64,000 nt of DNA from Candidatus Schekmanbacteria bacterium (GTDB lineage: Bacteria > CSSED10-310 > JACPHN01): NCBI GenBank assembly GCA_016188575.1, contig JACPHN010000228.1:35961-99960 (forward strand). The letters are read 5' to 3'. The notes beneath the pieces are model-generated. The model was not told the origin of the DNA, made no database searches, and saw only the letters and a program-made list of their open reading frames with translations. Both the position numbers and the translations under genes were made by a program. Numbering within the stretch: position 1 is the first letter of the stretch; every line of letters begins with the position of its first letter. Of this stretch, positions 12,401-32,363 are shown piece by piece.

Positions 12401-12508
12401 CGCGTTGCCACTCCAGGGCGAAGCGAAGCTCTTGTTCTGGTCAAGAATCCGTCGTACCCTGGAAGGTATCGCCGCGGCCCTGGGCGACGCGGCTCCTCTC
12501 AGGATTCC

Positions 12509-13452: not shown

Positions 13453-13475
13453 AATCCGGCACTGCGCGCCCATTT

Positions 13476-13503
13476 GGCCGAGCCCATGGCGTCGGGCTCG
13501 GCC
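13476..13503. terminator. 10-bp perfect inverted repeat GGCCGAGCCC, loop atggcgtc, GGGCTCGGCC between convergent genes; possible bidirectional terminator hairpin
   Basis: Read directly from the sequence. It sits between the J-domain gene stop (13452) and the convergent ATP-grasp-like gene stop (13529). There is no clear U-tract. Confidence 0.4.
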
Positions 13504-13528
13504 TCAGGCGCGGCGCGCAACCCAGAAG

Positions 13529-14620
13529 CTACAGCGGGGAGCGATACCGCGGCTGAGCCGGGTTATCCATCATCTCGTGCATTTCTTCCAGATACGCTTT
13601 CATCAGTTGATCGACGCCTTCGAAGTCGCCCTGCTGGTGCCAGTTGATGTTGAATCCAACCTGGTCGTTCAGCTCGGTGAGAAACCAGCGGCCACTGATG
13701 TCGCGCATTACGTCCACAGAAAAAACCCCATACGGAAAGAGCTCTCCGATCCGGTGCGCGACGGGATCGACCACGGCCCACGCGCCCGCCGGGTAGCTGT
13801 CGGGGTGGACATAGATCATGCCATGGTCTACGGTTTTTACGTAGGTCTGGATGAAAGAGACCCGGCCATGGTCCTTGATGGCAAACACGAAGCGAGCGTC
13901 GTGGCGTAGCCCGGCCAGCCCGATTTCCGGTATTCCTTCGTAGGTGTGCACCAGCGTCTGGATCACGTAGGGAAGGCGCGCAAGTTGCCCGAGGATGTGG
14001 CGAACAAATCCTGGGTCGTCGATCCGCTGGCCCCACCAATGGCGAAGCTCCAACCCTCGCGGCTGCCGGGTCACCATGAAAATTCCGCGGCTTTCCCAGC
14101 CGTGATCCGGCTTCAGCAGAGCCGCTTCGTGATGCTCGGCATAGGTTTCGTCCATGAGGTCAAAGAATGCCGAGACCTGCTCTTCAACCGGGCCTGACGC
14201 GGGATCAATGCGCCGGGTCAACGCGTGATAGCGCCGGAACGCCTCGTAAGACTTCCATTTCGAACCCACGAGCCGGCTCAAGCCGACGTGACCGAAGATT
14301 GGCAGCCCCAGCTCGATGATTCTGTCGATGACGGCGCGAAAATGCGGCTCACCCTCGTCGAGCTTGTCAAAAACGAAGGTGGCCTCGATGGGCTCTGCCA
14401 CCGGCGCCCAACGCCAGTTGCGCGGGACCCAATAGCCGCTCACCGTGCCGTCTCCTGCGAAGTCGTACGAAGAGCAAAACGCCATGCTTCGTCCCCCGGC
14501 ATTCGCCAGGCTGTGGAAATGCCCGTACGCGCGATTCAGATCGTCGTTGTCACCGTATGGCATGATCCCGGAGCGAATGCTGGGCAGGTCGGAATTGAGC
14601 ATGATCGGGCACTTGCGCAT
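13529..14620 (-). CDS. ATP-grasp-fold enzyme-like protein (TTL/RimK-style), ~363 aa (tentative)
   Basis: ATP-grasp-like features are present: RGIFMV, YVIQTLVHTY...HDARFVFAI, and a C-terminal WFLTELNDQVGFN that resembles the hhhEhN...P motif. I chose MRKCPIM as the start because a GGAGG site sits 6 nt upstream; the ORF-track start at 14692 is an alternative. Confidence 0.55.
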   Translation of the reverse strand: MRKCPIMLNSDLPSIRSGIMPYGDNDDLNRAYGHFHSLANAGGRSMAFCSSYDFAGDGTVSGYWVPRNWRWAPVAEPIEATFVFDKLDEGEPHFRAVIDRIIELGLPIFGHVGLSRLVGSKWKSYEAFRRYHALTRRIDPASGPVEEQVSAFFDLMDETYAEHHEAALLKPDHGWESRGIFMVTRQPRGLELRHWWGQRIDDPGFVRHILGQLARLPYVIQTLVHTYEGIPEIGLAGLRHDARFVFAIKDHGRVSFIQTYVKTVDHGMIYVHPDSYPAGAWAVVDPVAHRIGELFPYGVFSVDVMRDISGRWFLTELNDQVGFNINWHQQGDFEGVDQLMKAYLEEMHEMMDNPAQPRYRSPL

Positions 14621-14927
14621 GAGCCCCTCCAAGCGGCAATGGGATTGAGGCGCGGCGATGAGCGGGAACTGGTTCAGCGCCGCTGGCGTCAAACCCGTGC
14701 GGTTATATCATGGCTGAGGCGGTTTGTGCGAGCACCTCGGAGCCCCGTCGCGAATCTCGTGACACCCCGGGATCACCGCCTGTTCGACGATTCCTGAGTG
14801 AAACGCGGGAAGTAGCGGGCGGATTCATGGGAGGTTGGATTTGTGCCTCTCGCTGCACCGGGAATGAGGGAAGATGCCGCCGGCAACGGCAGCGAGACCA
14901 CGACGGCCCCTGGAGCGACAAGGACTT

Positions 14928-15932
14928 TCATTGTTTTCTTCCCCGTCGCGGGATCACCCGGCTTAGCACCAGCAGCAACAAGGCCAGCCCGCCAGGCGAC
15001 ACCCCAGGCACGGGTCGGAGGAATCCCTGCACCACCGCGATCTGGTTACCGCCGCCAAACGTGGAAAAGAGAAAATCTCCCGTCACGGGATCGATCGTCG
15101 CGCCTTCCGCCCCCGTGAGATCGCTCATGAATGTGCGTCGCGTATTCACCAGGGGGTTGCCGTTGCCGTCGACTTCGTAGGCCCCCACTGCCCCAGCCGT
15201 GTACTCGGAGATGAGCATGCTATTGACGGCGAAGAGCGCGTTTCCGGCGCGGATGTAGACAAACCCCTCCGGTCCTCCGGAAACAGCCTGGTTCCCGGCG
15301 ACCGTCGGATCCAGATCGACCATGGTGTAGGGACCGATGTTGAACGTACCGCTGCCGTCAGGGCTGAACGTCGCAGCGTACCACTGACCGGCCTCCCAGC
15401 ACATAACCTTCACCCGACCGGCGCCACCAAAGCCGGAGGGCACGAAGTTGACCGAGCTTACCGAGCTCGCGGCGCCTTCCGGACCAGCCGCGAGTTGGTC
15501 CTCATCGTCTGTGGTCCCGGGCTTTACCTGTCCGATCTCGTTCTTCGGCCACCGCCCCAGAAACAGGACACCGCCGGGGCCAAACGCCACACCTCCGTCG
15601 TTGTAGTCTCCGATCCCCGAGGCCGCGCCGCCATACTGCAACGCCGTACCGGAAAAGCCAGTGATGTGGCTGTCCGTTCCGCGCACCACAGCGATCGTGT
15701 AGAGCCTACCGGAAGAAGAGTTTGCGTGTCCTCCGATGAGAATCGTATTCTCATCGAGAAACGTCAGTCCGCCGTACTGGGTAGGGAGTCCTGGCACTGA
15801 TCCGATGCTCGTCACGCTGTAGTAGTTGGCGTAGTACGGGTCAATCGTGAGCGCCGGCGCCGCCGGTGCATGGAAGAGGAAGGCAACTGTTGACAACCCT
15901 GCGAAACTTCTCAGATACGCTCGACACTTCAT
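14928..15932 (-). CDS. Secreted protein with a PEP-CTERM-like C-terminal sorting tail (~334 aa)
   Basis: MKCRAYLRSFAGLSTVAFLFHAPAAPA looks like a signal peptide, with a GGGAG site 7 nt upstream. The C-terminus PVPGVSPGGLALLLLVLSRVIPRRGRKQ has a hydrophobic helix followed by a basic tail. Confidence 0.65.
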   Translation of the reverse strand: MKCRAYLRSFAGLSTVAFLFHAPAAPALTIDPYYANYYSVTSIGSVPGLPTQYGGLTFLDENTILIGGHANSSSGRLYTIAVVRGTDSHITGFSGTALQYGGAASGIGDYNDGGVAFGPGGVLFLGRWPKNEIGQVKPGTTDDEDQLAAGPEGAASSVSSVNFVPSGFGGAGRVKVMCWEAGQWYAATFSPDGSGTFNIGPYTMVDLDPTVAGNQAVSGGPEGFVYIRAGNALFAVNSMLISEYTAGAVGAYEVDGNGNPLVNTRRTFMSDLTGAEGATIDPVTGDFLFSTFGGGNQIAVVQGFLRPVPGVSPGGLALLLLVLSRVIPRRGRKQ

Positions 15933-15950
15933 GTTCGTGCTCCCGATGCT

Positions 15951-15964
15951 GTCTATAGATCTAT
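15951..15964. promoter_or_regulatory. Perfect 14-bp AT-rich palindrome CTATAGATCTATAG just upstream of the start codon of the PEP-CTERM-like gene
   Basis: Read directly from the sequence. It lies about 19-32 nt upstream of the ATG and is unusual in a ~70% GC context. Confidence 0.3.
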
Positions 15965-16164
15965 AGGAGGTTGCCGCCGAAGTCAACTTATCGGTTTCAC
16001 TCCGTCCTCCAAGCCAGACTTCGCCGATTTTCGCCGCCGCACAGCGACCGGACCGGCCTCCTGAACAGGACACGACCCATAGCACGGCGGAGGCTTTTCT
16101 TGAGAGCCCAGACGATGTCCAGATCTCCGCGCGTGAAGAAAAGGTCACAAAATTCACGCTCCAT

Positions 16165-17823
16165 TCATTCTTGCTGCCACTGCCGCGACAGCGCCACGAT
16201 TTCCTGGTACGTCAGGATCTCGCGGGTCTTGCGCTCGTCGCACCAACCGAGCAAGCTTGCCATCCGGGAAGCCACCTTGTCGACGGCCGCCAGGCCCTGA
16301 TCCTTGTCACGAAGGAAAAGCTGCGTGCGCCGTTCCATGACGTCCCGAACGGTCTGCGCCAGCTCCAGCTTCACCGCCCAGTCGACCAGGCCGAGCACCT
16401 CGGGCCTTCCCGGCACCAGCGGCTCTCGCAGGCTATCGTCGCTAGCGAGCAGGCGCGCGATTTCCACCCCCCGCATCCCGTAGCGTTCGATGAGATGGCG
16501 GGCGACCGAGCGTGGGACGGTGCCCATGGAGGCTTCTACCGCCTGCGCGGCAATGGTGTCAAAATCGTCGTCGTCCGGCCAACCCACGGCCCCCGGCAGA
16601 GGCCGGCGGCCGGTGTTGGCGTCCTTGACGTCCTCGGGCATCTTCCCGAGAATGGCCATCATTTCGAGCGCTCGGGTGACCAGCTCGGCGGCCATGCGCC
16701 GGTAGGTCGTCAGCTTGCCGCCGGCGATCGTGATGAGGCCATCCGGGTCGACGGTGATCTCGTGCTCGCGCGACACGGACGACGCGGAAACGCCGTCGGC
16801 TCCGATGAGCGGGCGGACACCGCTCCACGTCGCAATCACGTCGCCGGGCGCCAGCTTCGAGTCGGGGAAGTAGGCGTTCATCGCATTCAGAAGGTAGTCC
16901 ACGTCGGCTCGGGTCGCCGAGACCTTGCCAGGGTCGCCCGAGAAGTCGGTATCCGTGGTGCCGACGATGGTTCGATCGCCCCACGGAATCGCGAACAGGA
17001 CTCGGTCGTCGTGCGGGTGGTTGCAGACGATGGCATGGCGGACCGGCAAGCGCTCTGCCTCAAGCACCAGATGGACGCCCTTGGTAGGCCGCAGCAGCGC
17101 CTCACCCCCGAGCCCCAGTGCCCGCGTCCGATCGACCCACGGTCCCGTGGCGTTGATGACCACCGTGGCATTGACGTCGACCTCGTCGTCCCCGAGCACG
17201 TCGCGCACGCGCGCGCCGACGACTCGACCCACACTGTCGCGCAACAGACCCGTCACCCGCGCATAGGTCGCCACGGCGGCACCCTGTGAACGGGCATCGA
17301 GAACGGTCTCGAGCGTCAGCCGCGCATCATCGGTCTGGCAGTCGTAGTAGAGGGGAGCTCCCTTCAGCTCGGTGCGGCCAAGCGGCGGGACTTCCTTTGC
17401 CACCTCGTCCGGGGTGAGGATCCGGTGTCGTTTGGGAGACCGAAACAGAGACAGCCCATCGTACAACCACAGACCGGCCTGCAGGACCCGCATGCCGAAC
17501 CGCGAATGTGCGTACACCGGGAAGATGAATCCGAGCGGGCGCACCAGATGCGGCGCGATATTCATGAGCGTGCGCCGCTCGCTCACGGCCTCGAACACGA
17601 GCGAGAATTCGCGTTGCTCGAGGTACCGCAGGCCGCCGTGCACCAGCTTCGAGCTGCGCGACGACGTGCCGTAGGCGATGTCTTGCGCCTCGACGAGCGC
17701 GACTTTCAGACCGCGCCGCGCCGCATCCCGCGCCGCGCCACACCCCGTGATCCCACCGCCGATGACGAGCAGGTCGTACCGGTCTCCCGCGAACTGTGAC
17801 AATCGCCCCGCTGCTAAACCCAT
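16165..17823 (-). CDS. glpD: FAD-dependent glycerol-3-phosphate dehydrogenase
   Basis: The N-terminal FAD-binding motif is DLLVIGGGITGCGAARDAARRGLKVALVE. Its 552-aa length and conserved blocks are typical of GlpD/GlpA. Confidence 0.85.
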   Translation of the reverse strand: MGLAAGRLSQFAGDRYDLLVIGGGITGCGAARDAARRGLKVALVEAQDIAYGTSSRSSKLVHGGLRYLEQREFSLVFEAVSERRTLMNIAPHLVRPLGFIFPVYAHSRFGMRVLQAGLWLYDGLSLFRSPKRHRILTPDEVAKEVPPLGRTELKGAPLYYDCQTDDARLTLETVLDARSQGAAVATYARVTGLLRDSVGRVVGARVRDVLGDDEVDVNATVVINATGPWVDRTRALGLGGEALLRPTKGVHLVLEAERLPVRHAIVCNHPHDDRVLFAIPWGDRTIVGTTDTDFSGDPGKVSATRADVDYLLNAMNAYFPDSKLAPGDVIATWSGVRPLIGADGVSASSVSREHEITVDPDGLITIAGGKLTTYRRMAAELVTRALEMMAILGKMPEDVKDANTGRRPLPGAVGWPDDDDFDTIAAQAVEASMGTVPRSVARHLIERYGMRGVEIARLLASDDSLREPLVPGRPEVLGLVDWAVKLELAQTVRDVMERRTQLFLRDKDQGLAAVDKVASRMASLLGWCDERKTREILTYQEIVALSRQWQQE

Positions 17824-18311: not shown

Positions 18312-20387
18312 TCACCGCCGCCTCACCAGATCAACAAGGCGCAGCAACGCCTGCAGCGGCACTCCGCCATACTTGCTCAGTGCCCCATACCGCCAGTGCG
18401 CGCCGCGAACGTGGCGAAGCACCTCGCGCAAGTGCCATATCGGCGGGCCATGAGGCACGGTCGCCAGATCCATCAGATCGCTGCTTCCGAAGTCCTCGCA
18501 GTGGTTGAGGCGCGTGAGCATGGCGACTTCTTCCCGGCGAGGATAGGCGATCGCCCGTTCGAGCATGGCGACAACGAACGGTTTGAGATCCGCGAACCCG
18601 TACCCCGTCAGCAGGCAGGCACGAGCGAAAACCGGGACAAAGGCGAGCACGCCCTGTTGAATCGCACCGATCATGGCGTTGCTCAGGCGCTCGCTACCAC
18701 GCTCGGGAGCGTCCTCGGCTTTCAAGATCGGCACTACCCCGCCCCCGTTGTCGGCGCGGCGATATCCAATTGTCGTGGCCTCCGGTGAGCGCGCGCTCTC
18801 TTCGAACAGCTCTTCGTAGTGCACGCAAACTCTCTCCACCGGCTCCCCGCGCCGAGCGTCGAATAGCAGACCTTCGACCTCGTTGCCGCTGCCGAACCGA
18901 TAGGGAATACCACCTGAGAAGGCGAGATAATACCCCTGGAGGCGTGGGCAGTCGGCGCGCTGCCGAAACGTTCGCCAGAGCGCCTGCTGAATCGTTCCGT
19001 TCCAACCGATGTCCACCAGAGCGACTGCGGACTGACCGAAGAATCCCTCTTGCCCGAGATACTCGGCCAGAAGCTCCCGCGGCGCTGCCGCCTGCTGCTG
19101 CACCCGTCTCTGCACCCGATCATCGCGAAGAAAGGCGTCAAATCTGACATCTCTGGGATCATCGAGTGGCACCGTCAGGTCGGCCATGCCGTGCTCGGCG
19201 GCCAGCCCGGCGAGCAGCGCGTCGGGGAGCCCAAACGCCTTGAACACGCTTTGCAGGCCCCGTTGCCGCGGATTGTTGAAAGGCACGATCGCATCCTCAT
19301 AGGACAGGCCGAACGCGGCCAGGGCTGTGCTCGCGGTCTGCCGAGACACGTACAGGTAGGAGGTCTCCGGTGGTGCACTGGCCGCGAGCTTCGGCCAGAG
19401 CTCCGTGAAAACCCGATAGGGGAGATACCCATCCCGCGATGGGAAAAACAGCTTCGCGACGGGGGCGCGCTGCAGTCGCTCGATCACGCCAAGGGTGAAG
19501 GCGCAATACACGGGTCCGAGCACCTCCCAACCATAGCGCGCGTAGGCATTGTCCGGGCGGGCGCCGTCCGGCTCGTTCTCGGCGATCGACAGACACACCT
19601 CCAGCAGATGCCGCCCGCGCCAGAATCGGCGAGGCCGCCCGAGCTCGCCATAGAAGGCCAGGCGATCTCGCCGGCGAATGTCCGGAGGGTCGCGGAAAAG
19701 GTGCGCGCGGATCCCGAGTCGAGCTGGAGCGCGGGCGTCCGCCTCCGGATTGTCGCCGACGTGCGCGATCTCGCTCGGCGCCACGCCCAGGTCCGCAACG
19801 ATTCTCCAGAACAGCCGCCCCGAATACTTGCCTGCTCCGTGGTCGCCGGAAACATAGAAGTGATCAAACAGGTGCTCGATTCCCTTGTCACGGAAGATCG
19901 CGCGCAGGAGAGCTTCGCCGAGATACATGTCGGAGGTGGCGATGATCGTCTTGCCCCGTTCGCGAAGCCGCTCGATCACGGACCGTATTCCTGGGCGGAC
20001 CGCGCACACTGCGAGCTCCAGGCTCAGCTCGGTCCGTTGGATCAGCTCTTCAACGGGCCGGTGGCCTGCGGTGACGAGTTGCCGAGCCCACACGTAGGCA
20101 AGCTCGTCGAGGCGGAACTCCGGATCTCGTCCGGCGTTCTTGGCCAGCTCGCGCAAGGAGCGCTCGAGCACGTCGCGCCTGGCTGCCTGCTCGGCGCCTT
20201 TGGCCGCGCCCCCAACCGCGGCGGTCACGACCTCGGCGACGCGGCGCTTGACGGCGGCCGGGGGCTCCACGTGGCGGATGAGCACGGTATCGAAGATGTC
20301 AAAGGAGATGACCCGCACGGACCGCGGCAGTCGCGATCCGAACCGCGCGACCGCGGCGACGCCAGAAGCTCGAAGTGAGAGCGCCAT
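18312..20387 (-). CDS. HAD-like hydrolase-fold N-terminal domain protein with a large C-terminal domain of unknown function (691 aa)
   Basis: VISFDIFDTVLIRH is motif-I-like, and ...KTIIATSD... and VGDNPEADARAP are further HAD-like motifs. It is the last gene of a four-gene minus-strand operon, with a 31-nt gap after the SDR gene. Confidence 0.65.
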   Translation of the reverse strand: MALSLRASGVAAVARFGSRLPRSVRVISFDIFDTVLIRHVEPPAAVKRRVAEVVTAAVGGAAKGAEQAARRDVLERSLRELAKNAGRDPEFRLDELAYVWARQLVTAGHRPVEELIQRTELSLELAVCAVRPGIRSVIERLRERGKTIIATSDMYLGEALLRAIFRDKGIEHLFDHFYVSGDHGAGKYSGRLFWRIVADLGVAPSEIAHVGDNPEADARAPARLGIRAHLFRDPPDIRRRDRLAFYGELGRPRRFWRGRHLLEVCLSIAENEPDGARPDNAYARYGWEVLGPVYCAFTLGVIERLQRAPVAKLFFPSRDGYLPYRVFTELWPKLAASAPPETSYLYVSRQTASTALAAFGLSYEDAIVPFNNPRQRGLQSVFKAFGLPDALLAGLAAEHGMADLTVPLDDPRDVRFDAFLRDDRVQRRVQQQAAAPRELLAEYLGQEGFFGQSAVALVDIGWNGTIQQALWRTFRQRADCPRLQGYYLAFSGGIPYRFGSGNEVEGLLFDARRGEPVERVCVHYEELFEESARSPEATTIGYRRADNGGGVVPILKAEDAPERGSERLSNAMIGAIQQGVLAFVPVFARACLLTGYGFADLKPFVVAMLERAIAYPRREEVAMLTRLNHCEDFGSSDLMDLATVPHGPPIWHLREVLRHVRGAHWRYGALSKYGGVPLQALLRLVDLVRRR

Positions 20388-20418
20388 CGGCTCGGTATCC
20401 CCGGGCGCGGCCGGCCGC

Positions 20419-21477
20419 CTACGGCTGAATGCCGCGCTCGCGCATCCATGCGAGGCTTCGGCGCATGCCCTCCGCGAGCGACACTTTCGGCTCGTAGCCG
20501 AGCTCCCGCCGCGCTCGCTCCACGGAGCAGGCGATGTTCTTGTTCATCTCGGACAGCACGTGGAGCTCCGGCGAGTAAAAGCCAGCGTTTTGAAGGATCT
20601 TGTCCGCGAGGTACGCTGCGGCGCTGGCGGCGCCCGGCAGGCGCACGCGGCGATGCTTGCACTGAATCCCGAAATCATGTTCCATGACGCCCTCGATCGT
20701 GTCCACGATTTCGTTCATCGTGTAGGGGTTGCGGTCAGCAATCCAGTAGGTTCGGCCGGACGCCTTCTCGACACGCTCGCCCAGCAATAATCCCTGGCAA
20801 ATGTTGTCCACGTACGCCATGGAGCGGCGGTTTTCTCCATCGCCGACGATGGGCACCCGGCCCGTCTTGATCATCGTGAAGAAGCGCGTCTGCCGGGCCG
20901 GCTGGTGTGGGCCGTAGAACCATGGCGGCCGGATGATGACCGCTTCGAGCTCACCCGAGGCACCGGCGCGGTTCACAATGTCTTCAGCGCGCCGCTTGCT
21001 GAGCCCGTAACCCATGTAAGGGTTGTAGGGAGAACCTTCGTCGAAGACGTGCCGGTTAGAGGCGTTGGTGCCGATGGGTGAGTTCGAGGACACGTGGACA
21101 AGACGCCGCACGCCTGCGCGCGCGGCAGCAGTTACCACGTTTTCTGTCCCTCGGACATTGACCTCGAAAAGCTCTTGGGTGCGGCGGCGCGGGTGAATCA
21201 CGCCGGCCGTATGAAACAGGGTCCCGCCCGCTGCCGCGGCGAAAAAATCGCGCAACGACGAGGGATTCCTGACGTCACCTGGGTGGATGTGCACGGCTCC
21301 ACCGAGTTGCTCGAGCTCGGACGTGTCGGAGGAAGGCAGGACCAGGCAGCGGACCGTGCGCGGTGGCTGCGGAGCCGGAAAGCGCGCGTCGTCTGCAAGT
21401 CCGCTCACCAGCGCGCGCACCAGACGAATGCCCAGCCAGCCGTTTGCGCCGGTCACCAAGGCTACGGGCTCGGTCAT
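20419..21477 (-). CDS. NAD-dependent epimerase/dehydratase (extended SDR)
   Basis: VALVTGANGWLGIRL is the Rossmann motif and YGLSK is the catalytic YxxxK. The start MTEPV has a GGAGG site 6 nt upstream, and its ATG overlaps the GMC gene stop as ATGA. Confidence 0.85.
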   Translation of the reverse strand: MTEPVALVTGANGWLGIRLVRALVSGLADDARFPAPQPPRTVRCLVLPSSDTSELEQLGGAVHIHPGDVRNPSSLRDFFAAAAGGTLFHTAGVIHPRRRTQELFEVNVRGTENVVTAAARAGVRRLVHVSSNSPIGTNASNRHVFDEGSPYNPYMGYGLSKRRAEDIVNRAGASGELEAVIIRPPWFYGPHQPARQTRFFTMIKTGRVPIVGDGENRRSMAYVDNICQGLLLGERVEKASGRTYWIADRNPYTMNEIVDTIEGVMEHDFGIQCKHRRVRLPGAASAAAYLADKILQNAGFYSPELHVLSEMNKNIACSVERARRELGYEPKVSLAEGMRRSLAWMRERGIQP

Positions 21478-22934
21478 GGGTTTTCCTCCAAGAAGCGAAC
21501 GACGTTGCGTCTGGCGAGTGCCATCACGGCTCCCTGTGGGTTCACACCCGGTGAGTCCGGCAGCATGCTCGCGTCGTTGATGTACAGATTCTCGAACCCG
21601 CGCACCTTGCCGAAGGAATTCGCCGCGCAGCGGTCCTCGCGCTCGCCGATGGGGCAAGAGGAAAACGCGTGCACCGTTCCGAGGCTCAGACTCGCGGGCA
21701 CAAGCCGCTCATCCAACCACCGCACGGCCTCGACCTCCGAGCGGATCGCCGGCAGGCCCTGCACGCAAGGGAGCACCTCGATCGCGCCCGCGGCGAGAAG
21801 CACCTCGGACAGCCGCGCCAACCCGCGCGACAGGTGGAGGATGTCGATGTCGGAAAGGTCATAGCGCAAATTTGCGCCATCCGGGTCAACTCGAGAAGGT
21901 CGCACCATTCCCGCCCCAGTTCCTTTCACCGCCACATAATAGCTGGCCATGCAATCCGCATGGCGCATGAGGTCGCGGTTCGCGAGCCAGTTGTCGCTGA
22001 GCAGCATGGCCAGGTGACCAGTGGAGAAGAAGGCGCCGCCGAGCGAGATTTCGGGCCAGAACTCCTTGATTTGAATGAGCGGCACGGGCGACACGCGCCC
22101 CCCGACCGGCTCCGGAAAGCGGGCAGCCACTTTGAGCATTGGATGCACCCGCAGCGTGTCGCCGATGTGGAGCTTGACGCCGCTGCGGCGCAGCAGTGCG
22201 GGTGTTTCTGTAGGGCCGCAGCACACAAATACGTGCTCGCCGAGGATGCGCACGAGCTCCACGACTCCGTCAGCGCGGCTAAATCGCGCGAGAACTCCGT
22301 CGACCCGTGCGCCGCGGCGCAGGAGATGGGTCACGCGGCAGTTGGAGATGAGCCTCGCGCCAGCCGCCCGGGCGCGCGCCAGGACTGTCGAGCGCACGCC
22401 GGCGGTCGGACCGCTCGCATCCCCCTGCGCCGGGTCCCGCGGGTCCGGTCGCGTCAGCGGAGCGCGCGGCACCTCCTGGTAGGACCACCCCATTGCGGCG
22501 ATCCCCCGCGCCAGCGCCGCGGTGCTGCCGGGCCACGGGCGCTTGCTGAGGCCGACGCCGAGCGCTGCTTCCGCCCACTCGTAATGCGGCTCGAGCTCCT
22601 GCGGGCTGGCACCGTCGAGCTCGTAGCGCCCCTTCCAGCTCAACAGGACTTCCCTCGGGACGCGATGCCAAAAGCCGCTGTTGATTTCAGAGCTGCCCCC
22701 GACGCAGCAGCCTTCCACGTAGCCGATTGGAACGCGCCCCACAATCGGGGTCATGCCTCGCCGCCGGTACATGGCACCCATCATCTTGGGGCCATGCTGA
22801 TCAAAGGCTCCCGCGTCCAGGTCGTCTCCTTCTTCGACGACGACCACGTCGCGGCCGCTCGCAGCGAGCTCATGAGCCGTAATCGCTCCGCCGGCCCCCG
22901 ACCCGACGATCACCGCGAAAGGAATTGGCGTCAC
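21474..22934 (-). CDS. GMC-family FAD-dependent oxidoreductase
   Basis: FAVIVGSGAGGAITAHELA is an FAD Rossmann motif and NLYINDASMLP is the C-terminal GMC signature. The likely GTG start overlaps the upstream gene stop as GTGA. Confidence 0.8.
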   Translation of the reverse strand: MTPIPFAVIVGSGAGGAITAHELAASGRDVVVVEEGDDLDAGAFDQHGPKMMGAMYRRRGMTPIVGRVPIGYVEGCCVGGSSEINSGFWHRVPREVLLSWKGRYELDGASPQELEPHYEWAEAALGVGLSKRPWPGSTAALARGIAAMGWSYQEVPRAPLTRPDPRDPAQGDASGPTAGVRSTVLARARAAGARLISNCRVTHLLRRGARVDGVLARFSRADGVVELVRILGEHVFVCCGPTETPALLRRSGVKLHIGDTLRVHPMLKVAARFPEPVGGRVSPVPLIQIKEFWPEISLGGAFFSTGHLAMLLSDNWLANRDLMRHADCMASYYVAVKGTGAGMVRPSRVDPDGANLRYDLSDIDILHLSRGLARLSEVLLAAGAIEVLPCVQGLPAIRSEVEAVRWLDERLVPASLSLGTVHAFSSCPIGEREDRCAANSFGKVRGFENLYINDASMLPDSPGVNPQGAVMALARRNVVRFLEENP

Positions 22935-24433
22935 GACACGGCCCCCGTCACCACCGCGGTCCCCCGAGCGGTCGCCGGTGACGTGCCGTCGGCCAGCCGC
23001 CGCTGCACCTCGGGGTGATCATAGTAGGCCAGATACGCCACCGAGCGGATCGGTCTAAAGAGCTGTCTGGCAAGGCCAACGGGGCCAAACGCCCAAAGCT
23101 CGACTATGTCGCGCCGCACCCCGCTCGAAAGCTGCGCGAAGGGGGCGCGGGCGTGCACATAGGACACCGCGCAAAAGCACCAAATACCACCGCGAAACGC
23201 TACCCGCAGCCGCATTGGCAAGGCCTGTATCTGGCTTGCGCTGAATTCGAAAACGTCGGCGAGAATCTGCTCTCGCGCTTCGCTACCAACGCCGAGCTCC
23301 GCCGGATCGACGAGCGCCTCGATGATCGCGCGCAGGACTACATCTGCTCGTCGCGTCGAGAGGCGTCGGCGGGCGCTGCCGAGGACTTTCATGGGCGATT
23401 CCGGCTCGACCTCGATCGTTGGCGCTCGGCGACCCCCGTACGCGGCGACCAGGGTCGCGCCGACGCCGATTCCGTACCACACCATGACGAGCACACCCCA
23501 GATCGTAATCGGAATATAGAAGGTAAGATGGATGATGACCGCGCAGCCGAACGCCTTGGCCTGCTCCACGCCAAACAGCATCAGCGCCTGCATGGCAATA
23601 TAATGAAAAGTTCCGAAAAAGCCGGGGCTGGCAGGAATCAGAATACCCAAGTTGGTGACGGACATGACGAGCAGCGCCCACGCGGGGTGCGCGCCAAAGC
23701 CGAACGAGACCATTACAAAATAGAACATCGCGACTTCGAGTAGCCACACCGCGGTGCTCAGCACCCAGATTCGCCAGATGTTGTGCAGGCTGCGCAAGTA
23801 TGCCACGCCCTGAACCGCGGCAGTGGTGAACGACACGAAGCGATCTCGCCACTCGGGCTGCAGCCGCTGCGAGATGCCGAGCGCTTTCCCGAGCACATAC
23901 TGCGGAGCAACCACCGCCAGCGCTACGAACGCCGTCGCTACCCCGAACAGCACCGAGACCACCCAGATCGAGACATGCACCCAGGTTTGCTCCGGTGCAT
24001 ACGTGGCCGAGATGAGGAAAAACAGCAGAATCACCAGGCCGTCCAGGAGCCGTTCGACGAAGGTGATCGCAAGGGCGGTCGCCAGCGGCATGCCAGTTCT
24101 TTCGGTGAGCATGCTGGCGCGCACGAGCTCGCCGAGACGTGCCGGTAAAACGTTGTTGCCGGCGTAGCCGATGACGACGATGTTTGTGGCGGTACTGTTG
24201 GTGACTTGTGCCTGGCGACTTACCAGCAGGCGGCATCGCATGCCCCGCACGACGTATCCTGCCAGGCATGCGAGCGCTGCCAGCTCCAGCCACGGATGCG
24301 CGTTGACGTGCGAAAAAGCCTCGGCGACCTTGCTCAGGTCGAGACGGCGCGCTGCCAGGAAAAGGAAAAAGAAACTCAGGCCAATGCCGCCGAAAACAAG
24401 CGCAGCGTTGGCTCTCTGGATGGGTCTGGACAT
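22931..24433 (-). CDS. Polytopic inner-membrane protein (at least 8 predicted TM helices), possibly of the flippase-like / lysylphosphatidylglycerol-synthase-TM family, with a ~170-aa soluble C-terminal extension
   Basis: Hydrophobicity pattern read by eye. I placed the start at MSRPIQRANAALVFGGIGLSFFF (cat read at 24431-24433). It is the first gene of a four-gene operon. The family assignment is tentative. Confidence 0.6.
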   Translation of the reverse strand: MSRPIQRANAALVFGGIGLSFFFLFLAARRLDLSKVAEAFSHVNAHPWLELAALACLAGYVVRGMRCRLLVSRQAQVTNSTATNIVVIGYAGNNVLPARLGELVRASMLTERTGMPLATALAITFVERLLDGLVILLFFLISATYAPEQTWVHVSIWVVSVLFGVATAFVALAVVAPQYVLGKALGISQRLQPEWRDRFVSFTTAAVQGVAYLRSLHNIWRIWVLSTAVWLLEVAMFYFVMVSFGFGAHPAWALLVMSVTNLGILIPASPGFFGTFHYIAMQALMLFGVEQAKAFGCAVIIHLTFYIPITIWGVLVMVWYGIGVGATLVAAYGGRRAPTIEVEPESPMKVLGSARRRLSTRRADVVLRAIIEALVDPAELGVGSEAREQILADVFEFSASQIQALPMRLRVAFRGGIWCFCAVSYVHARAPFAQLSSGVRRDIVELWAFGPVGLARQLFRPIRSVAYLAYYDHPEVQRRLADGTSPATARGTAVVTGAVS

Positions 24434-24616
24434 TACTGGGGGATTCCTGTGCGAAAGTGAGGAGAACGGTAGCAAGGCGCTGGATCCGTGTCAAGTCGGG
24501 CGCGCCGCGCGCGCTCACAGGAGGCTCTTGAAAGCGTCGAGACGGGCCGCTAGACTCCGCGCGGCGCACCCGCGCTCTACCACTATCTGCTCTTCGGATT
24601 TTCTGGAGATGGGCTC

Positions 24617-25645
24617 GTGCACCACCTGATCACCGGCGGCTCCGGCTTCCTTGGAAACCTCATCGCCCGGCGCCTCCATGAGCGCGGCGAGCAGGTCCGT
24701 ATTCTGGACATCTGGGAGGACAAGTCTCGCCCAGCCGGCATCGAGCTCGTTCGCTGCGATATCCGCAATCGCGAGGGCGTGGCCAAGGCGATGCGGGGCA
24801 TCGATATCGTCCACCATAATGTGGCCCTCGTGCCGCTTACAAAATCAGGCTCTTCATTCTGGGATGTAAACGTCGAGGGCAGCCGCATTGCTGCCGAAGA
24901 GGCAGTGAAAGCTGGCGTCAAGAGCTTCGTGCAGATGAGCTCAAGCGCCCTCTTCGGCTGCCCGGAGCACTGCCCCATCACCAATGAGACCGCACCCAAA
25001 CCGGTAGAAATTTACGGGCGCGCGAAGCTTGCCGGCGAGCTCGCTGTGCGCGAGGTCTGCGAGCGAGCAGCACTGCCGCTGGTCGTGATCCGCCCGCGAA
25101 CGATCCTCGGCGAGGGGCGCTTCGGCATTTTTCAGATTCTCTTCGAGTGGATCCGCGAGGGAAGAGACGTTTACGTTATTGGCAATGGCGATATTCTTTT
25201 CCAGTTCGTGCATGCGCACGACCTGATGGACGCCTACATGCTTGCCCTCGACGCTGGACGATCGGGTATCTACAACGTCGGAACGGATCGCTTCGGCACC
25301 TTGCGTGAGGGGCTCGCGCACCTGATCGAGCACGCGGGCACCACGTCGCGGGTGCGCGGCCTTCCAGAGTCTCTGACAATAAACACCCTCAGAGTGCTTG
25401 ACTGGTTGCGGCTCAGCCCCCTTGCGCCCTGGCACTACCTGACGTATCACAAAGCGTTTTACTTTGACGTTTCCCCGCTGCTTGGTCTTGGATGGAAACC
25501 CCGGTACTCCAACGACGAGATGTTTCGGGAGTGTTACGACTGGTATCTGAAGAACAGCGACTTGGCCCGCGCTCCGAAGGATGCCTCGGCCCATCGTAGT
25601 CTTGTAAAGCAGCGTGTTCTGAAAATCGTGAAGTGGTTTTCGTGA
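24617..25645 (+). CDS. NAD-dependent epimerase/dehydratase (SDR), second copy, divergent from the membrane-protein operon
   Basis: HHLITGGSGFLGNLIARRL is the N-terminal motif and YGRAK is the YxxxK. The start is GTG, with GGAG 8 nt upstream. Confidence 0.8.
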   Translation: MHHLITGGSGFLGNLIARRLHERGEQVRILDIWEDKSRPAGIELVRCDIRNREGVAKAMRGIDIVHHNVALVPLTKSGSSFWDVNVEGSRIAAEEAVKAGVKSFVQMSSSALFGCPEHCPITNETAPKPVEIYGRAKLAGELAVREVCERAALPLVVIRPRTILGEGRFGIFQILFEWIREGRDVYVIGNGDILFQFVHAHDLMDAYMLALDAGRSGIYNVGTDRFGTLREGLAHLIEHAGTTSRVRGLPESLTINTLRVLDWLRLSPLAPWHYLTYHKAFYFDVSPLLGLGWKPRYSNDEMFRECYDWYLKNSDLARAPKDASAHRSLVKQRVLKIVKWFS

Positions 25646-28526: not shown

Positions 28527-28667
28527 CTGCCCGCGCGGAGTCGTCCGAACCTGTTGCTGTGCCGCCCTGATCTAGCTACCAATTGACATTCAGCGACGTG
28601 GAGCATAGCCTCAGGGCCGCGTCCCCCTTTACATGGACCCCTCACAGCAAGCGTGACAGCGCGCGAC

Positions 28668-29399
28668 ATGGCCGACGAAATCGGTGATAAAGGCGACCGC
28701 TATCGGATCCGCGCCCATCCGGATCTGGCGGCGCCAGACCCGGCTGCCGTGCCGCTCGAACCTGGTTCTGAGGCATCCGATGCGCATGCCCCGGAGCTCG
28801 ATGGTTTTTCCGCGACCGACGCGGCCAGTCGAACGCAGTTTCAGCGCATCATGGGGCGCGCCTCCTCGACCGCGCGATTCAGCTCCGCCGTGGCGGGTGC
28901 GCTCAGCAGCCCGCGGCAGGCCGAGGAGAAGGACCCGCCGGATGTATCCGAGAGCATCTGCCGCCCAAAGAGGAAGAAGTCATCGCGGCCGCCGCGTCGC
29001 ACCGGTCCTGGTGAGCTGAGCTTGGGGGCGATTGCCCTCTATGCGCGTGCGCGCGCCCGCAGGCACGGCGTCCACAGCTCGTCAAGCCTGGGCTGGTTGG
29101 ACGCCGCAGTGCGGTCGTCTGGGGGGGGAGCCGGCGCGGCGGAGATCTGGAAGGTCGCCGTACCTCCTGCCGGCGCCGAGGGGGGAAATCCCTTCTGGCA
29201 GTGGGCCGTTGGCCGGATTCGGCGCATCGCCTCCGCCACCGAGCTCAGCCGGCTCTTGCGGGCGGCGTTGGTAGAGGTCTTGCTGCAGTTCGCGAGTGAA
29301 ACACGACCCGGCGGTGACGGCGAACGCGTGCGGGCATGCATAGAACACGAAGTTAGCGCCCTGCGCGGGGAAGTCTCAACCCGCAAGGCACACCCCTAA
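28668..29399 (+). CDS. Hypothetical protein (low confidence)
   Basis: A long open frame in a GC-rich region with no recognisable motifs. The competing antisense ORFs are shorter. Confidence 0.3.
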   Translation: MADEIGDKGDRYRIRAHPDLAAPDPAAVPLEPGSEASDAHAPELDGFSATDAASRTQFQRIMGRASSTARFSSAVAGALSSPRQAEEKDPPDVSESICRPKRKKSSRPPRRTGPGELSLGAIALYARARARRHGVHSSSSLGWLDAAVRSSGGGAGAAEIWKVAVPPAGAEGGNPFWQWAVGRIRRIASATELSRLLRAALVEVLLQFASETRPGGDGERVRACIEHEVSALRGEVSTRKAHP

Positions 29400-30047: not shown

Positions 30048-32363
30048 ATGATGCGCGGACGCATTCTCACAACATTTCTCGCACTATCTCTCATCGCGGC
30101 AGGGTGTACCAATGTGAAAATCGATTCACCCAAGAACGGTGGGCTCTATCCCGATGCTCCGGATTTCAAAGTAAGCTACAACAGTGAGCCGTCAGGCCTC
30201 ACCCTCAAGCTCAACGGCACGGATGTTACCAGTTTCTTCGCCGTGGGCTCCGCCGCCGCGACCGCGTCCGGCGACGCACTGGCCGCCTATGTCCTTCCCG
30301 GCGACAACCAGTTCGAGGTTACCCGGCCGTCTTTCGTGAGCCCCGTCCAGTTTCACTTCGATGTCGTCGGCCCTACCGTCAAGGTGACATCCGTTGACGA
30401 GGCCTCACCTCTCGTCGTTCACGGACGCGTCGAGGACCCGGCCGGTGTGGCGCGCTTGAGCTGCAATGGTGCCGCGGTCACCGTTTCCGGAGGCAGTTTC
30501 ACGGCCACCGTAGCCAACGCCGCCTTCGTCGGCTTCGAGGCGGAAGACGGCTTCGGACACGTCTCCACCACCACCTTTGCGCGGCCCGGCACTGCCCTCG
30601 GCTCCAGCATGGGCGCCCGCCTGAACAAGAGTGGCATCGCCTTCCTGGTGGCGGAAATCTCGAATCTCCTGGGCAAGCTCGACTTCGGCGAGCTGATCAA
30701 GGAGCTCAACCCGCTCTTCGACAAGAGCATCGGTGTGGCGTCCGCTCGCGTGGACGCAACGGATGTCGAGATCTCCGCACCCAAGGTCAGCCTGGCCGTC
30801 TCGCCATCCAACGATGGGACCTTCGATGTCGGAGTTGACATCTCGGACCTCGTCGTCTACGTCCACGCTACCGGAACCGTCATTGGCATTCCGTGGGAAA
30901 CCGACGGAGTCGTCTGGGCGGACCTGGTCAGCTTTGACGGTAAGGCGAAGGTCACCGTCACCAACCAGAAAATCGGTGTGGCGCTGAGCAATCTGTCGCT
31001 GGTTCTGAATGGGTTTGGATTCGACATCAGCGGCTTCCCCGATGTTCTGGAAGGTCTCTTCTTCGACCTGGTCGGCGATCTGCTTGAAGGCTTCATCAGG
31101 GACGAGCTCGCTACACGGATTCCCCCGTATATCGAAGAGTTTCTCAAGAATATCCCCTCTGACTTCCAGATCGATCTTGACGGCCACGCCTTCAGGATCG
31201 CGGCACTGCCCCAGGCGCTGACAACCAAGGACGAAGGCATGTCGGTCCACCTCGCCGCCTCCGTCAGCACCCTTACCCCAGTCGATGTGCCACCAGCCCT
31301 GGGGTCGCTCTACGTTGCTGGCGCGACGCCTGATCTGGGGACCAAGACGCCCGGAGGCAAGGCCTTCGACGCCGGCGCTGTCGTCTCGGGAAACCTGATC
31401 AATCAGGCACTCCTCGAGGGATACCGCGCCGGCCTTACACATGTCGGGCTTGACGAGCAGACCAATCCGCGAATTTCCCCGGCAGGTCTGCGCGGGATCG
31501 GCATGGAGATCCAGGGACTCTTTGATGGAGATGACGTGCGCTTCAACGTGCTGCCATCGAGCCCGCCGTATGCCGGCATTCGCGGCACCCAGACCGCGCT
31601 CGCTGCTCTGGCGATGGACGAGTTTACCTTCGAGCTCGAGCTGCGCAAGCAGGGTACCGACGACTGGCTGCTGGTCTTCGGGGCCGTTCTCGATATGAAC
31701 GTCCCCTTCCTCATCGGCGTCAGCGACAACAACACGGTCAAGGTCACGTTTGAAGAGGTGCCGACCGTGAAGATCCGCGACATCGACGACAGGGGCGTCA
31801 TTGACCTCGACGAGAAGCTCGTGCAAGCGATCATTGATTGGCTCTTGCCGCTCGCCCTGCCGTACCTCGCTGACATCGTCGAGGAAATCAAGATCCCGAG
31901 TTACGAAGGCTATGGCGTCTGGTTGCACGACTTGTTTGCCACCGGCTCCTCGACAGACTACATCGCTTTTGCCGGTAATCTGGTCAAGGATTCGACCCGA
32001 ACCCGCGCCGCGCGTCCGGAAACGTATGTGCTCGTGGAGGATGTTGCGTACACCTCGCGGTCCTTCGCGACCGAGGTCGCACCGGATTCCGCGCTGGATG
32101 GCAAGCTGGTGACCGTGTATGTCGCCGGCGATGTCCCCGGTGCCTCGGTGCTGCAGTACTCGTATCGGCTTGACAGCGGAGAGTGGTCGGTCTGGCGCGA
32201 GCGAACCGAGATCCACCTGCGTCATTTGCTCGCCGGCGATCACGTCTTGGAAGTGCGCAGCCGCACCCCGCAACTTGCGGTCGACCCCACGCCCGCACGG
32301 GTCGTGTTCCGGACTGGACCCGAGTCGTACAGGTTGACGTTGGGGCGACCTTTCGCCCGGTAG
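30048..32363 (+). CDS. Large lipoprotein (771 aa) with a lipobox signal peptide and a C-terminal Y_Y_Y-like domain
   Basis: MMRGRILTTFLALSLIAAGC is a signal peptide ending in the lipobox LIAAGC. The C-terminus VLQYSYRLDSGEWSVWRERTEIHLRHLLAGDHVLEVRSR resembles the two-component-regulator Y_Y_Y domain. The gene is preceded by a sigma-54 promoter. Confidence 0.8.
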   Translation: MMRGRILTTFLALSLIAAGCTNVKIDSPKNGGLYPDAPDFKVSYNSEPSGLTLKLNGTDVTSFFAVGSAAATASGDALAAYVLPGDNQFEVTRPSFVSPVQFHFDVVGPTVKVTSVDEASPLVVHGRVEDPAGVARLSCNGAAVTVSGGSFTATVANAAFVGFEAEDGFGHVSTTTFARPGTALGSSMGARLNKSGIAFLVAEISNLLGKLDFGELIKELNPLFDKSIGVASARVDATDVEISAPKVSLAVSPSNDGTFDVGVDISDLVVYVHATGTVIGIPWETDGVVWADLVSFDGKAKVTVTNQKIGVALSNLSLVLNGFGFDISGFPDVLEGLFFDLVGDLLEGFIRDELATRIPPYIEEFLKNIPSDFQIDLDGHAFRIAALPQALTTKDEGMSVHLAASVSTLTPVDVPPALGSLYVAGATPDLGTKTPGGKAFDAGAVVSGNLINQALLEGYRAGLTHVGLDEQTNPRISPAGLRGIGMEIQGLFDGDDVRFNVLPSSPPYAGIRGTQTALAALAMDEFTFELELRKQGTDDWLLVFGAVLDMNVPFLIGVSDNNTVKVTFEEVPTVKIRDIDDRGVIDLDEKLVQAIIDWLLPLALPYLADIVEEIKIPSYEGYGVWLHDLFATGSSTDYIAFAGNLVKDSTRTRAARPETYVLVEDVAYTSRSFATEVAPDSALDGKLVTVYVAGDVPGASVLQYSYRLDSGEWSVWRERTEIHLRHLLAGDHVLEVRSRTPQLAVDPTPARVVFRTGPESYRLTLGRPFAR

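Follow-up and report, generated by a model that had tools for sequence, protein, structure and literature searches.

The stretch of DNA analyzed here (the window, 64,000 nucleotides in full, from contig JACPHN010000228.1 of a Candidatus Schekmanbacteria assembly) contains a compact locus of five genes, which encode a membrane protein (MP), an oxidoreductase of the GMC family, two short-chain dehydrogenases/reductases (SDR1 and SDR2) and a long protein with a HAD domain (HAD-long), identified below as a homologue of ribofuranosyltransferases (Table 1). MP and HAD-long are 100% identical to proteins of metagenome-assembled genomes (MAGs) at NCBI labelled 'Candidatus Schekmanbacteria bacterium'. 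Four of the genes follow one another on the same strand with hardly any space between them: the TGA stop of MP overlaps the GTG start of GMC at 22931-22934 (gtg tcG TGA cgc), the GMC stop overlaps the ATG of SDR1 at 21474-21477 (ccA TGA cc), and the SDR1 TAG, ending at 20419, is followed by a 31-nt gap (20388-20418) and the ATG of HAD-long. The longest open reading frames (ORFs) of MP and SDR1 are somewhat longer than the versions counted from ATG, beginning at a TTG at 24475 and extending to 21657, respectively. An earlier note on this DNA, made without database searches, had described the five genes, both overlaps, the gap and the 183-bp divergent region before SDR2, all of which were found in place, and the families that it had proposed for three kinds of protein were all matched in searches with hidden Markov models: PF03706 for MP (E 1e-46), PF00732 and PF05199 for GMC (E 3e-26 and 5e-16) and PF01370 for SDR1 and SDR2 (E 6e-33 and 2.5e-37); HAD-long matched PF00702 (E 4e-17). 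Terminator-like and promoter-like signals inside the operon, including the gap between SDR1 and HAD-long, were not above shuffled expectation, and an Rfam search matched no RNA family. The 183-bp spacer holds a single sigma-70-like match, no more than chance expects; it is bracketed by the arms of a GC-rich inverted repeat of 15 nt (93% complementarity, arms separated by 46 nt), which may be an operator or a structure.

The comparison of this locus with related ones establishes that the window carries a conserved, uncharacterized four-gene module, MP-GMC-SDR1-SDR2. A set of 80 loci was fetched with MP alone (one genome per species scanned) and orthologues were called by tblastn with the window proteins, an orthologue of GMC being defined by at least 40% identity. 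Homologues of MP are numerous, about 35-45% identical and nearly all of ~490 aa, and they are accompanied by a GMC orthologue in 77 of the 80 loci (directly 3' of MP on the same strand in 74), by SDR1 in 70 (always on the same strand) and by SDR2 in 57 (54 on the same strand, 3 on the opposite one), with all four genes together in 56. This arrangement is far beyond chance, and the synteny that the earlier note had suggested comparing across related genomes is strongly conserved. The three loci without GMC comprise one 2-kb contig that ends too early and the two most distant members of the set, both from Chloroflexota (L085 and L086). Most of the loci come from Myxococcota (Polyangiaceae; Labilithrix, with L. 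luteola DSM 27648 as a cultured carrier, locus L019, NZ_CP012333.1 around 10.318-10.324 Mb) and from Melainabacteria/Obscuribacterales (the complete CP064963.1 among them), while further carriers are single MAGs labelled Vicinamibacterales, Udaeobacter, Planctomycetota, Phycisphaerales, Binatia and Eisenbacteria, among others. HAD-long, a GlpD-like gene and a gene for a 409-aa protein, which lie next to one another in the window, are each found in none of the 80. The four-gene operon described by the earlier note therefore stands as an arrangement of genes but not as the functional unit: the conserved core is MP, GMC, SDR1 and SDR2, and the second SDR, taken at the time for a divergent outsider, is a core member that shares the orientation of the others in 54 of 57 other loci. 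Beyond these four genes, clustering of 1,111 neighboring ORFs revealed nothing conserved across phyla. In the literature we found no description of a GMC/flippase-like/epimerase module or of a PF03706-PF13618 fusion of the kind described below (searches also covered HpnA/HpnL, UPF0104 and gluconate 2-dehydrogenase subunit 3).

Table 1. Positions of the five genes, their domains and other features of the window (aa, amino acids; TM, transmembrane)
Feature	Position	Strand	Remarks
MP (membrane protein)	22931-24433	-	500 aa counted from ATG
MP residues 1-335, MprF-like (LPG_synthase_TM / UPF0104) TM domain	23429-24433	-	Foldseek, PF03706
MP residues ~361-487, all-helical C-terminal domain, divergent Gluconate_2-dh3 (PF13618)-like	22973-23353	-	pLDDT 90 model
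GMC oxidoreductase	21474-22934	-	486 aa, GTG start
GMC residues ~158-182, Cys motif replaced by APLTRPDPRDPAQGDASGPTAGVRS	22389-22463	-	alignment and three-frame translation
SDR1	20419-21477	-	352 aa counted from ATG
SDR2	24617-25645	+	342 aa, divergent from MP
MP/SDR2 divergent intergenic region	24434-24616	.	183 bp, read from sequence
HAD-long (ribofuranosyltransferase homologue)	18312-20387	-	691 aa
HAD-long residues ~23-240, HAD-type phosphoribose phosphatase (PRP) domain	19668-20321	-	PF00702; aligned to 7shg 37-249
HAD-long residues ~290-640, glycan phosphoribosyltransferase (gPRT)-like domain	18468-19520	-	aligned to 7shg 306-633
Sigma-70-like match	24528-24556	+	in the 183-bp spacer
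15-nt inverted repeat	24497-24511 / 24558-24572		in the 183-bp spacer
GlpD-like gene	16165-17823	-	DAO and DAO_C
Tandem 17-nt copies CCGCGCCGCGCCGCATC	17711-17744		in the 5' end of the GlpD-like coding region
409-aa protein	14928-16157	-	no Pfam or NCBIfam family
ORFs of 253, 387, 248 and 771 aa	12499-14692; 28653-29399; 30048-32363	-; +; +	no Pfam or NCBIfam family
Alpha-glucan-metabolism-related cluster	35986-40894 and 44957-46672
CLP1-type P-loop/metallo-beta-lactamase-fold fusion	8525-10405	+	626 aa
Very large ORF	1328-7225	+	1,965 aa
Very large ORF	51545-56098	+	1,517 aa
Very large ORF	61120-64000	+	>960 aa, runs off the window

Some lineages arrange the module in their own way. In Obscuribacterales (L023, L028, L032 and other Melainabacteria loci), SDR2 lies ~4-8 kb upstream of the MP gene, with genes for a 455-aa protein of unknown nature, a TPR protein and a small protein resembling lipoproteins in between, and SDR1 is followed by the gene for a conserved soluble protein of 533 aa that matches no Pfam family; these companions are lineage-specific. 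In a deltaproteobacterial MAG (L002/L007), SDR1 and SDR2 are absent from the 20-kb locus, and a 537-aa protein without a Pfam family and with one hydrophobic segment (11488-13101 of that locus) sits between MP and GMC. Large polytopic proteins recur in the wider surroundings of the module, and many of them are GT-C-like: of 27 that were scanned, five match PMT_2, one each is TMEM260-like, GT87 or DUF2079, and two match Wzy_C. Individual loci adjoin genes for YfhO, TMEM260-like and MATE proteins; in Obscuribacter, a PMT_2 gene comes directly after SDR1, and in L. luteola the module is flanked by two GT2 glycosyltransferase genes with C-terminal TM segments (GtrB-like), a UDP-GlcNAc 2-epimerase, a 9-TM protein and a MATE gene.

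The N-terminal two thirds of MP are a clear member of the PF03706 family (160 bits vs. a cut-off of 33.4, covering profile positions 3-302 of 302; TIGR00374, 80 bits vs. 43.2) with about eight hydrophobic segments. In its AlphaFold model (pLDDT 87), a disordered linker joins a helical polytopic domain (residues 1-335) to a compact helical one (365-481), and in a Foldseek search the only matches at E<=1e-3 were cryo-EM structures of MprF (9j8s, 9goe, 6lvf and 7f47), with another MprF structure, 7duw, next at 1.3e-3. MP thus belongs to the PF03706/MprF-like proteins rather than to an unrelated transporter family, as the earlier note had supposed in calling it flippase-like or of LPG-synthase-TM type; that description was incomplete, as it left out an additional C-terminal domain of ~130 aa, predicted to be cytoplasmic. 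Proteins of PF03706 are predicted flippases of lipids or lipid-linked sugars and adjoin GT2 and PMT/STT3-like GT-C genes in archaea (PMC5898192). The N-terminus of MP and the linker after its TM domain are rich in Arg and Lys, and by the positive-inside rule both ends of the protein are predicted to be cytoplasmic.

The additional domain is well conserved among MP homologues and points to a partnership with the enzyme encoded next to it. PF13618 matches nine of 36 homologues (best E 1.2e-5), and two members of the family of this domain (P0269, 30.9 bits, and P0211, 28.3 bits) exceed the Pfam cut-off of 23.4 bits. The domain of the window MP itself has no match to PF13618 or any other Pfam family at E<=0.05, and no fold match in PDB, including the solved small subunits (e.g., the gamma subunit in 6a2u). 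A profile of the domain retrieved 895 cluster representatives among 1.84 billion, and in two of these, P0339 and P0269, which are independent fusions, a domain of this docking type is joined in-frame to a GMC orthologue, ahead of the latter's N-terminus. The locus of P0339 (L089 378-6047, metagenome contig k141_4490593) has no PF03706 gene; instead, the start of the fusion gene is overlapped by a gene for an 11-TM protein without a Pfam family, and downstream lie SDR1 and SDR2, then genes for three small proteins and for a second 11-TM protein. Since the fusion is paired there with an 11-TM protein in place of a PF03706 protein, the docking domain appears to be portable between membrane partners. 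Adjacency, fusion and family homology together show the tail of MP, on the level of sequence, as the predicted docking partner of GMC, a reading that is further supported because the two Chloroflexota loci lose both together: there, the match to MP stops near residue 330, and the C-terminal domain and GMC are absent. No twin-arginine (TAT) signal is present on the small-subunit domain, which is located C-terminal to a polytopic protein or, in the fusions, N-terminal to GMC. The Arg/Lys-rich termini of MP, the absence of a signal peptide from GMC and the NAD(P) dependence of the SDRs lead us to predict a cytoplasmic location for both the docking domain and GMC.

GMC itself matches the N- and C-terminal domains of its family (PF00732, 93 bits; PF05199, 60 bits), begins directly with the FAD-binding motif and is 55-62% identical to orthologues in the module loci. 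The GxGxxG motif (G11-S-G-x-G-G16), His422 and Asn465 are invariant across 24 orthologues, that of the window included, and the latter two residues are by analogy the probable catalytic pair. A further motif, G-C-x5-C-x3-C-P-x-G-A-K, is present in every sequence of this alignment except the window's. Across a larger set, C-x5-C-x3-C is found in 60 of 62 orthologues, the other motif-less one being a Vicinamibacterales copy with a deletion; the P0339 fusion likewise lacks it. A frameshift or an assembly error in the window was rejected as the cause, as the length of the segment is unchanged and neither alternative frame encodes the motif; no other record of the exact GMC sequence was found, and the only other contig with the exact MP (3.8 kb) ends before the Cys region. 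In a profile of the Cys segment, positions 102-192 align with residues 211-297 of the alpha subunit of Burkholderia cepacia glucose dehydrogenase (BcGDH), and the three cysteines fall on Cys212, Cys218 and Cys222, the ligands of its 3Fe-4S cluster (PMC6719666). By these features the GMC family of the module is of the type found in FAD-dependent sugar-dehydrogenase complexes, with the window protein as a member devoid of the Fe-S ligands, even if the similarity of GMC to the enzymes of such complexes in PDB is no greater than to cellobiose dehydrogenase or cholesterol oxidase. The known enzymes of this class oxidize sugars and polyols.

This relationship brings up the possibility that MP and GMC form a membrane-bound respiratory dehydrogenase of sugars or polyols, a variant of the gluconate, glucose and fructose dehydrogenase complexes, which would serve catabolism by reducing quinone while the SDRs act on the keto-sugar; neither a lipid-linked substrate nor flipping would be involved. 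We regard this as very unlikely. It would account for the homology of the Cys motif and the docking domain to parts of FAD-dependent dehydrogenase complexes (PMC6719666) and for a glycerol-3-phosphate dehydrogenase gene located 0.5 kb downstream in the window; however, the known complexes are periplasmic, their small subunit carries a TAT signal and they include a cytochrome c subunit, whereas here the docking domain comes after a polytopic domain with Arg-rich flanks, GMC is free of a signal peptide and cytochrome genes are not conserved. Indeed, no gene family that could represent the multihaem cytochrome c subunit is conserved beside the module in 23 representative loci (no search was aimed at CxxCH itself), and neither is a transporter, kinase or regulator of the kind expected in a catabolic operon. 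Moreover, the window GMC lacks the Fe-S ligands that such an electron path needs, and the GT-C genes near the module would be left unexplained.

Both SDRs are of the extended type, SDR1 resembling epimerases/reductases (PF01370/PF01073) and SDR2 being GalE/HpnA-like (PF01370). In reciprocal BLAST, SDR1 is 57-63% and SDR2 44-69% identical to their counterparts, vs. ~25% between the two, so that they represent distinct orthologous groups. Twenty orthologues of SDR1 share a glycine-rich motif, Ser130-133 and Tyr157-x3-Lys161, and TGGxGxxG, Ser108-110 and Tyr133-x3-Lys137 are invariant among those of SDR2; judged by these motifs, both enzymes are catalytically intact. The best matches of SDR1 in PDB are dTDP-glucose 4,6-dehydratases. 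This activity was dismissed for SDR1 by eye, as its catalytic Ser stands in the context VSSNSP and not in the T-D-E motif of such dehydratases.

The families of these SDRs raise a different possibility, namely that a non-sugar membrane lipid is what the module modifies, such as a hopanoid- or sterol-like polycyclic alcohol, a hydroxy or keto long-chain lipid or a phospholipid head group. The part of GMC would then resemble that of a cholesterol oxidase and the part of the SDRs that of 3beta-hydroxysteroid dehydrogenase, OleD or HpnA, with the MprF-like domain binding the lipid and flipping it; the ribofuranosyltransferase would either glycosylate the same lipid or be a neighbor without relation to it. 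Such a role, which we hold to be unlikely, agrees with the match of both SDRs to PF01073 (3Beta_HSD) and with their best similarities in NCBIfam (OleD, HpnA and the sterol demethylase SdmB), weak as these are, all scores being far below the family cut-offs. It also agrees with the best alignment of the GMC C-terminus, which is with cholesterol oxidases, with the action of MprF on phospholipids (PMC5898192), with the co-occurrence of HpnA-like SDRs and HpnL, a PF03706 protein, in hopanoid clusters (PMC12583986), and with the self-contained nature of the module, which has no conserved glycosyltransferase. On the other hand, the PF13618 partner and the 3Fe-4S motif are marks of the sugar/polyol dehydrogenase-complex class (PMC6719666), the recognizable neighbors of the module are GT-C, Wzy_C, GT2 and MATE proteins with no cyclase or lipid-synthesis family among the most frequent families listed, and the partner gene in the window is a glycosyltransferase.

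The identification of this partner rests on comparison with solved structures. A phmmer search of PDB sequences with HAD-long retrieved 7shg_A, 'Ribofuranosyl transferase' (E 2e-23, in the stretches 26-231 and 303-638), as well as the capsule polymerase Bcs3; with a profile of 25 homologues, 7shg_A was matched in one stretch (residues 23-637 with 33-639, E 2.2e-85) and Bcs3 with E 5.6e-55. The PRP domain has the invariant elements FDIFDT (Asp30, Asp33), Ser152/Asp153, Lys187 and Gly211-Asp212 in the 25 homologues, and its loop-I motif FDIFDT aligns with the same motif of 7shg and Bcs3; the gPRT domain has the invariant residues Arg318, Arg349, Asp459-x-Gly-Trp-x-Gly464 and Glu529. The C-terminal ~450 residues match no Pfam family; a PIN domain suggested for this region (E 0.1) was dismissed, the PDB sequence search having given gPRT instead. 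In the characterized two-domain proteins of this family, the N-terminal HAD phosphatase domain strips the 5-phosphate after ribosyl transfer from phosphoribosyl pyrophosphate (PRPP), the loop-I Asp being its nucleophile (PMC11127046, PMC11294581). HAD-long is, by sequence, a full-length homologue of these dual-domain PRPP-dependent ribofuranosyltransferases. Thus, the earlier description of a HAD-like protein was correct for residues ~23-240 only and missed what is predicted to be its main, ribosyltransferase activity. Homologues of HAD-long are about 40% identical to it (the nearest ~42%); their length is ~690 aa, and ~1,075 aa in those that also carry a GT2 domain; about one third of them (P0126, P0127, P0139 and others) are such fusions of ~1,050-1,100 aa. 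These fusions echo the requirement of Salmonella STM0726 for a GT-A-fold partner, STM0725 (PMC11294581).

Taken together, these assignments make it possible, if short of probable, that the module performs redox tailoring or epimerization of a lipid-linked sugar at the cytoplasmic face of the membrane, sharing the logic but not the ancestry of DprE1/DprE2 and being fed in this genome by ribosylation. In such a scheme, the ribofuranosyltransferase would transfer beta-ribofuranose-5-phosphate from PRPP to a membrane-bound acceptor (a lipid-linked sugar or a lipid phosphate) and strip its 5-phosphate. GMC, docked at the cytoplasmic membrane face, would oxidize the sugar at a secondary hydroxyl, leaving a ketone, and the quinone pool or another acceptor would receive the electrons. 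SDR1 and/or SDR2 would re-reduce the ketone from the opposite face with NAD(P)H to give an epimer, which would be arabinofuranose (Araf) or xylofuranose (Xylf) from ribose here and a different sugar in other lineages. Finally, the MprF-like domain would hold and translocate the lipid-linked product for glycosyltransferases of the GT-C type. The operon would thereby parallel, step by step and with unrelated proteins, the route from PRPP to decaprenyl-phosphate-arabinose (DPA). A precedent exists in the epimerization of lipid-linked ribofuranose (Ribf) to Araf or Xylf (PMC11127046; PMC11294581). This reading gains support because the HAD-long family supplies the two steps that precede DprE1/DprE2 in the mycobacterial pathway (PMC11127046) and because GMC is of the sugar-dehydrogenase-complex type with its docking subunit fused to a flippase-like protein. 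The DprE1/DprE2 logic that the earlier note had invoked has in this way acquired circumstantial support (a ribosyltransferase with its phosphatase, the type of GMC and GT-C neighbors) while the unit to which it would apply is bounded differently.

Several observations weigh against this scheme. Everything past the domain assignments is what we infer from sequences. One epimerization needs one reductase, and the module has two SDRs, which also resemble the lipid-acting OleD, HpnA, 3beta-HSD and SdmB. The window GMC has an unrelated segment of equal length in place of the Fe-S cysteines. The recurrence of GT-C-type glycosyltransferases beside the module is suggestive and comes with no control set for enrichment; in Pfam counts over 130 soluble neighbors from 23 non-redundant loci, no family was common across lineages, and the annotated neighbors in the 64-kb window include no GT-C, GT2, UbiA-type PPPRS or polyprenyl-phosphate glycosyltransferase, MP being the sole polytopic protein there. 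The link to ribose has difficulties of its own: the ribofuranosyltransferase is joined to the module only in this window (in none of the 80 module loci and none of 80 transferase loci), and those 80 metagenomic loci (925 kb), fetched with the transferase profile, contain no MP and no GMC. Homologues of the transferase in Thiothrix lacustris and two metagenomic contigs lie in glycan loci with GT2, two of the three also having ABC-transporter (Wzm/Wzt-type) genes.

The juxtaposition of transferase and module could therefore be incidental, the transferase (perhaps with the GlpD-like gene) serving a separate glycan pathway and the module acting on a substrate unrelated to ribose. We judge this, too, to be unlikely, to about the same degree as a role in tailoring a non-sugar lipid. 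Zero co-occurrence in 160 related loci is what it would predict, as is the usual position of transferase homologues beside GT2 and ABC-transporter genes; GlpD-like sequences recur near such homologues (a gene in the glycan locus L165, a fragment in L125), and the lineage of the window is already atypical, with SDR2 inverted and the Fe-S motif lost. Nevertheless, in the window the module and the transferase share a strand with a gap of only 31 nt and no above-chance terminator between SDR1 and the transferase, there is no GT2 partner or other glycan gene within the 64 kb and no other obvious pathway partner nearby, and the chemistry of the transferase fits a step upstream of epimerization by oxidation and reduction (PMC11127046).

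The epimerization of a lipid-linked sugar, which we tentatively prefer, can also be put in a broader form: the module would be a widespread, hitherto unrecognized and non-homologous counterpart of DprE1/DprE2, in which an FAD dehydrogenase (usually with a 3Fe-4S cluster) docked onto an MprF-type flippase and two SDRs epimerize or otherwise redox-edit polyprenyl-phosphate-linked sugars at the cytoplasmic face and pass them through the membrane to GT-C enzymes in Myxococcota, Melainabacteria, Acidobacteriota, Planctomycetota and others, and which is coupled here to a gPRT-type ribosyltransferase. In this full extent the proposal is doubtful. Should it nevertheless be correct, it would represent a second, unrelated solution to on-lipid epimerization and change the reading of uncharacterized glycan loci in poorly studied phyla. 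To our knowledge, on-lipid sugar epimerization is known from very few systems; one SDR, ORF13, was reportedly described in 2024 as acting in it, and DprE1/DprE2 is a leading tuberculosis drug target. It would further imply an arabino-, xylo- or lyxofuranose-type donor made in this Schekmanbacteria genome by an entirely new enzyme set, a concrete and testable role for PF03706 proteins, a large orphan family to which HpnL and the C-terminus of AglD belong, and a re-use of respiratory-type dehydrogenase parts for biosynthesis. Even without the sugar hypothesis, the fusion of a docking domain would be a clear case in which a membrane protein recruits a soluble flavoenzyme, and a carrier of the module, Labilithrix luteola DSM 27648, is in culture.

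Other features of the window were recorded alongside. The GlpD-like gene, of the glycerol-3-phosphate dehydrogenase type, lies 488 bp downstream of the ribofuranosyltransferase gene and matches PRK12266 of NCBIfam with 365 bits (cut-off 360); the 5' end of its coding region contains two tandem 17-nt copies that are 88% identical, and the gene for the 409-aa protein starts 7 nt after it. In L165, a GlpD-like gene (13039-14778) and a ribofuranosyltransferase homologue lie two genes apart within a glycan locus, and a GlpD-like fragment in L125 lies near another homologue. Four ORFs of the window, one of them of 771 aa, have a coding-like GC content at third codon positions. The cluster related to alpha-glucan metabolism encodes a 662-aa TPR protein with several modules that bind glycogen or starch (AMPK1_CBM, CBM48 and X25), a maltodextrin-glucosidase-like GH13 protein (814 aa) and a phosphoglucomutase. 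An unusual fusion joins a CLP1-type P-loop (polynucleotide kinase-like) domain to a metallo-beta-lactamase-fold domain, and three ORFs are very large (Table 1).

A side-by-side comparison with known systems places the module between several of them. In DprE1/DprE2 (decaprenylphosphoryl-beta-D-ribose 2'-epimerase), a flavoenzyme oxidizes a hydroxyl of lipid-linked ribofuranose, and the resulting ketone is turned into the epimer by an SDR that uses NAD(P)H; upstream in the DPA pathway are ribosylation from PRPP and 5-dephosphorylation, downstream are flipping and GT-C transfer, and the same enzyme pair also makes Araf for some Gram-negative glycans (PMC11127046). The logic proposed for the module is alike by analogy, but the proteins are not homologous. 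DprE1 is a flavoprotein of the VAO/PCMH type, whereas the window enzyme has the GMC fold and no FAD_binding_4 match; DprE2 is a classical SDR, whereas the module has two extended SDRs of the PF01370 type; the mycobacterial route relies on two proteins, a UbiA-type membrane enzyme and a phosphatase, in place of a single soluble gPRT-PRP enzyme; and we know of no MprF-like partner of DprE1/DprE2.

With FAD-dependent dehydrogenase complexes (BcGDH gamma-alpha-beta, fructose dehydrogenase and gluconate 2-dehydrogenase), the module shares a GMC protein with C-x5-C-x3-C (in most orthologues) and a subunit of the PF13618 type, the small 'hitch-hiker' subunit of these complexes (PMC6719666). It differs from them in that the small subunit is fused to an MprF-like protein or to GMC, has no TAT signal and is predicted to be cytoplasmic, and in that the module has no cytochrome c subunit and is coupled to two SDRs, with the cysteines missing from the window GMC. 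Among PF03706/UPF0104 proteins (MprF, the C-terminal domain of AglD and HpnL), a family associated with flipping of lipids or dolichyl-phosphate-sugars and with GT2 and GT-C neighbors (PMC5898192), residues 1-335 of MP are a clear member by sequence and fold; unlike MprF and AglD, MP has a dehydrogenase-docking domain in place of the aminoacyl-phosphatidylglycerol synthase or GT2 domain. The closest relatives that bear a name, HpnA for the SDRs and HpnL for MP, have no assigned function themselves (PMC12583986).

HAD-long compares most directly with the dual-domain ribofuranosyltransferases (7SHG of Thermobacillus composti, Salmonella STM0726 and Bcs3 CriT/CrpP of Haemophilus influenzae type b), with which it shares homology over its full length, domain order and length and the HAD nucleophile motif (PMC11294581, PMC11127046). 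Its identity to 7SHG is low and the homology rests on the phmmer and profile matches (E 2e-23 and 2e-85), and it differs from its relatives in being located behind a GMC/SDR module without GT2, ABC transporter or other glycan genes. Finally, in the three-component system of Citrobacter youngae, ORF12-15 encode a PPPRS-PRP protein, a MATE flippase, a GT136 GT-C enzyme and an SDR epimerase, ORF13, that changes a lipid-linked pentofuranose (PMC11127046). The window has no UbiA-type synthase or GT-C, its flippase candidate is a PF03706 rather than a MATE protein, and an FAD dehydrogenase is added; what the two have in common is the PRP domain as a marker and, in the scheme proposed here, an SDR acting as epimerase on a lipid-linked pentofuranose and the combination of a flippase with GT-C transfer downstream.

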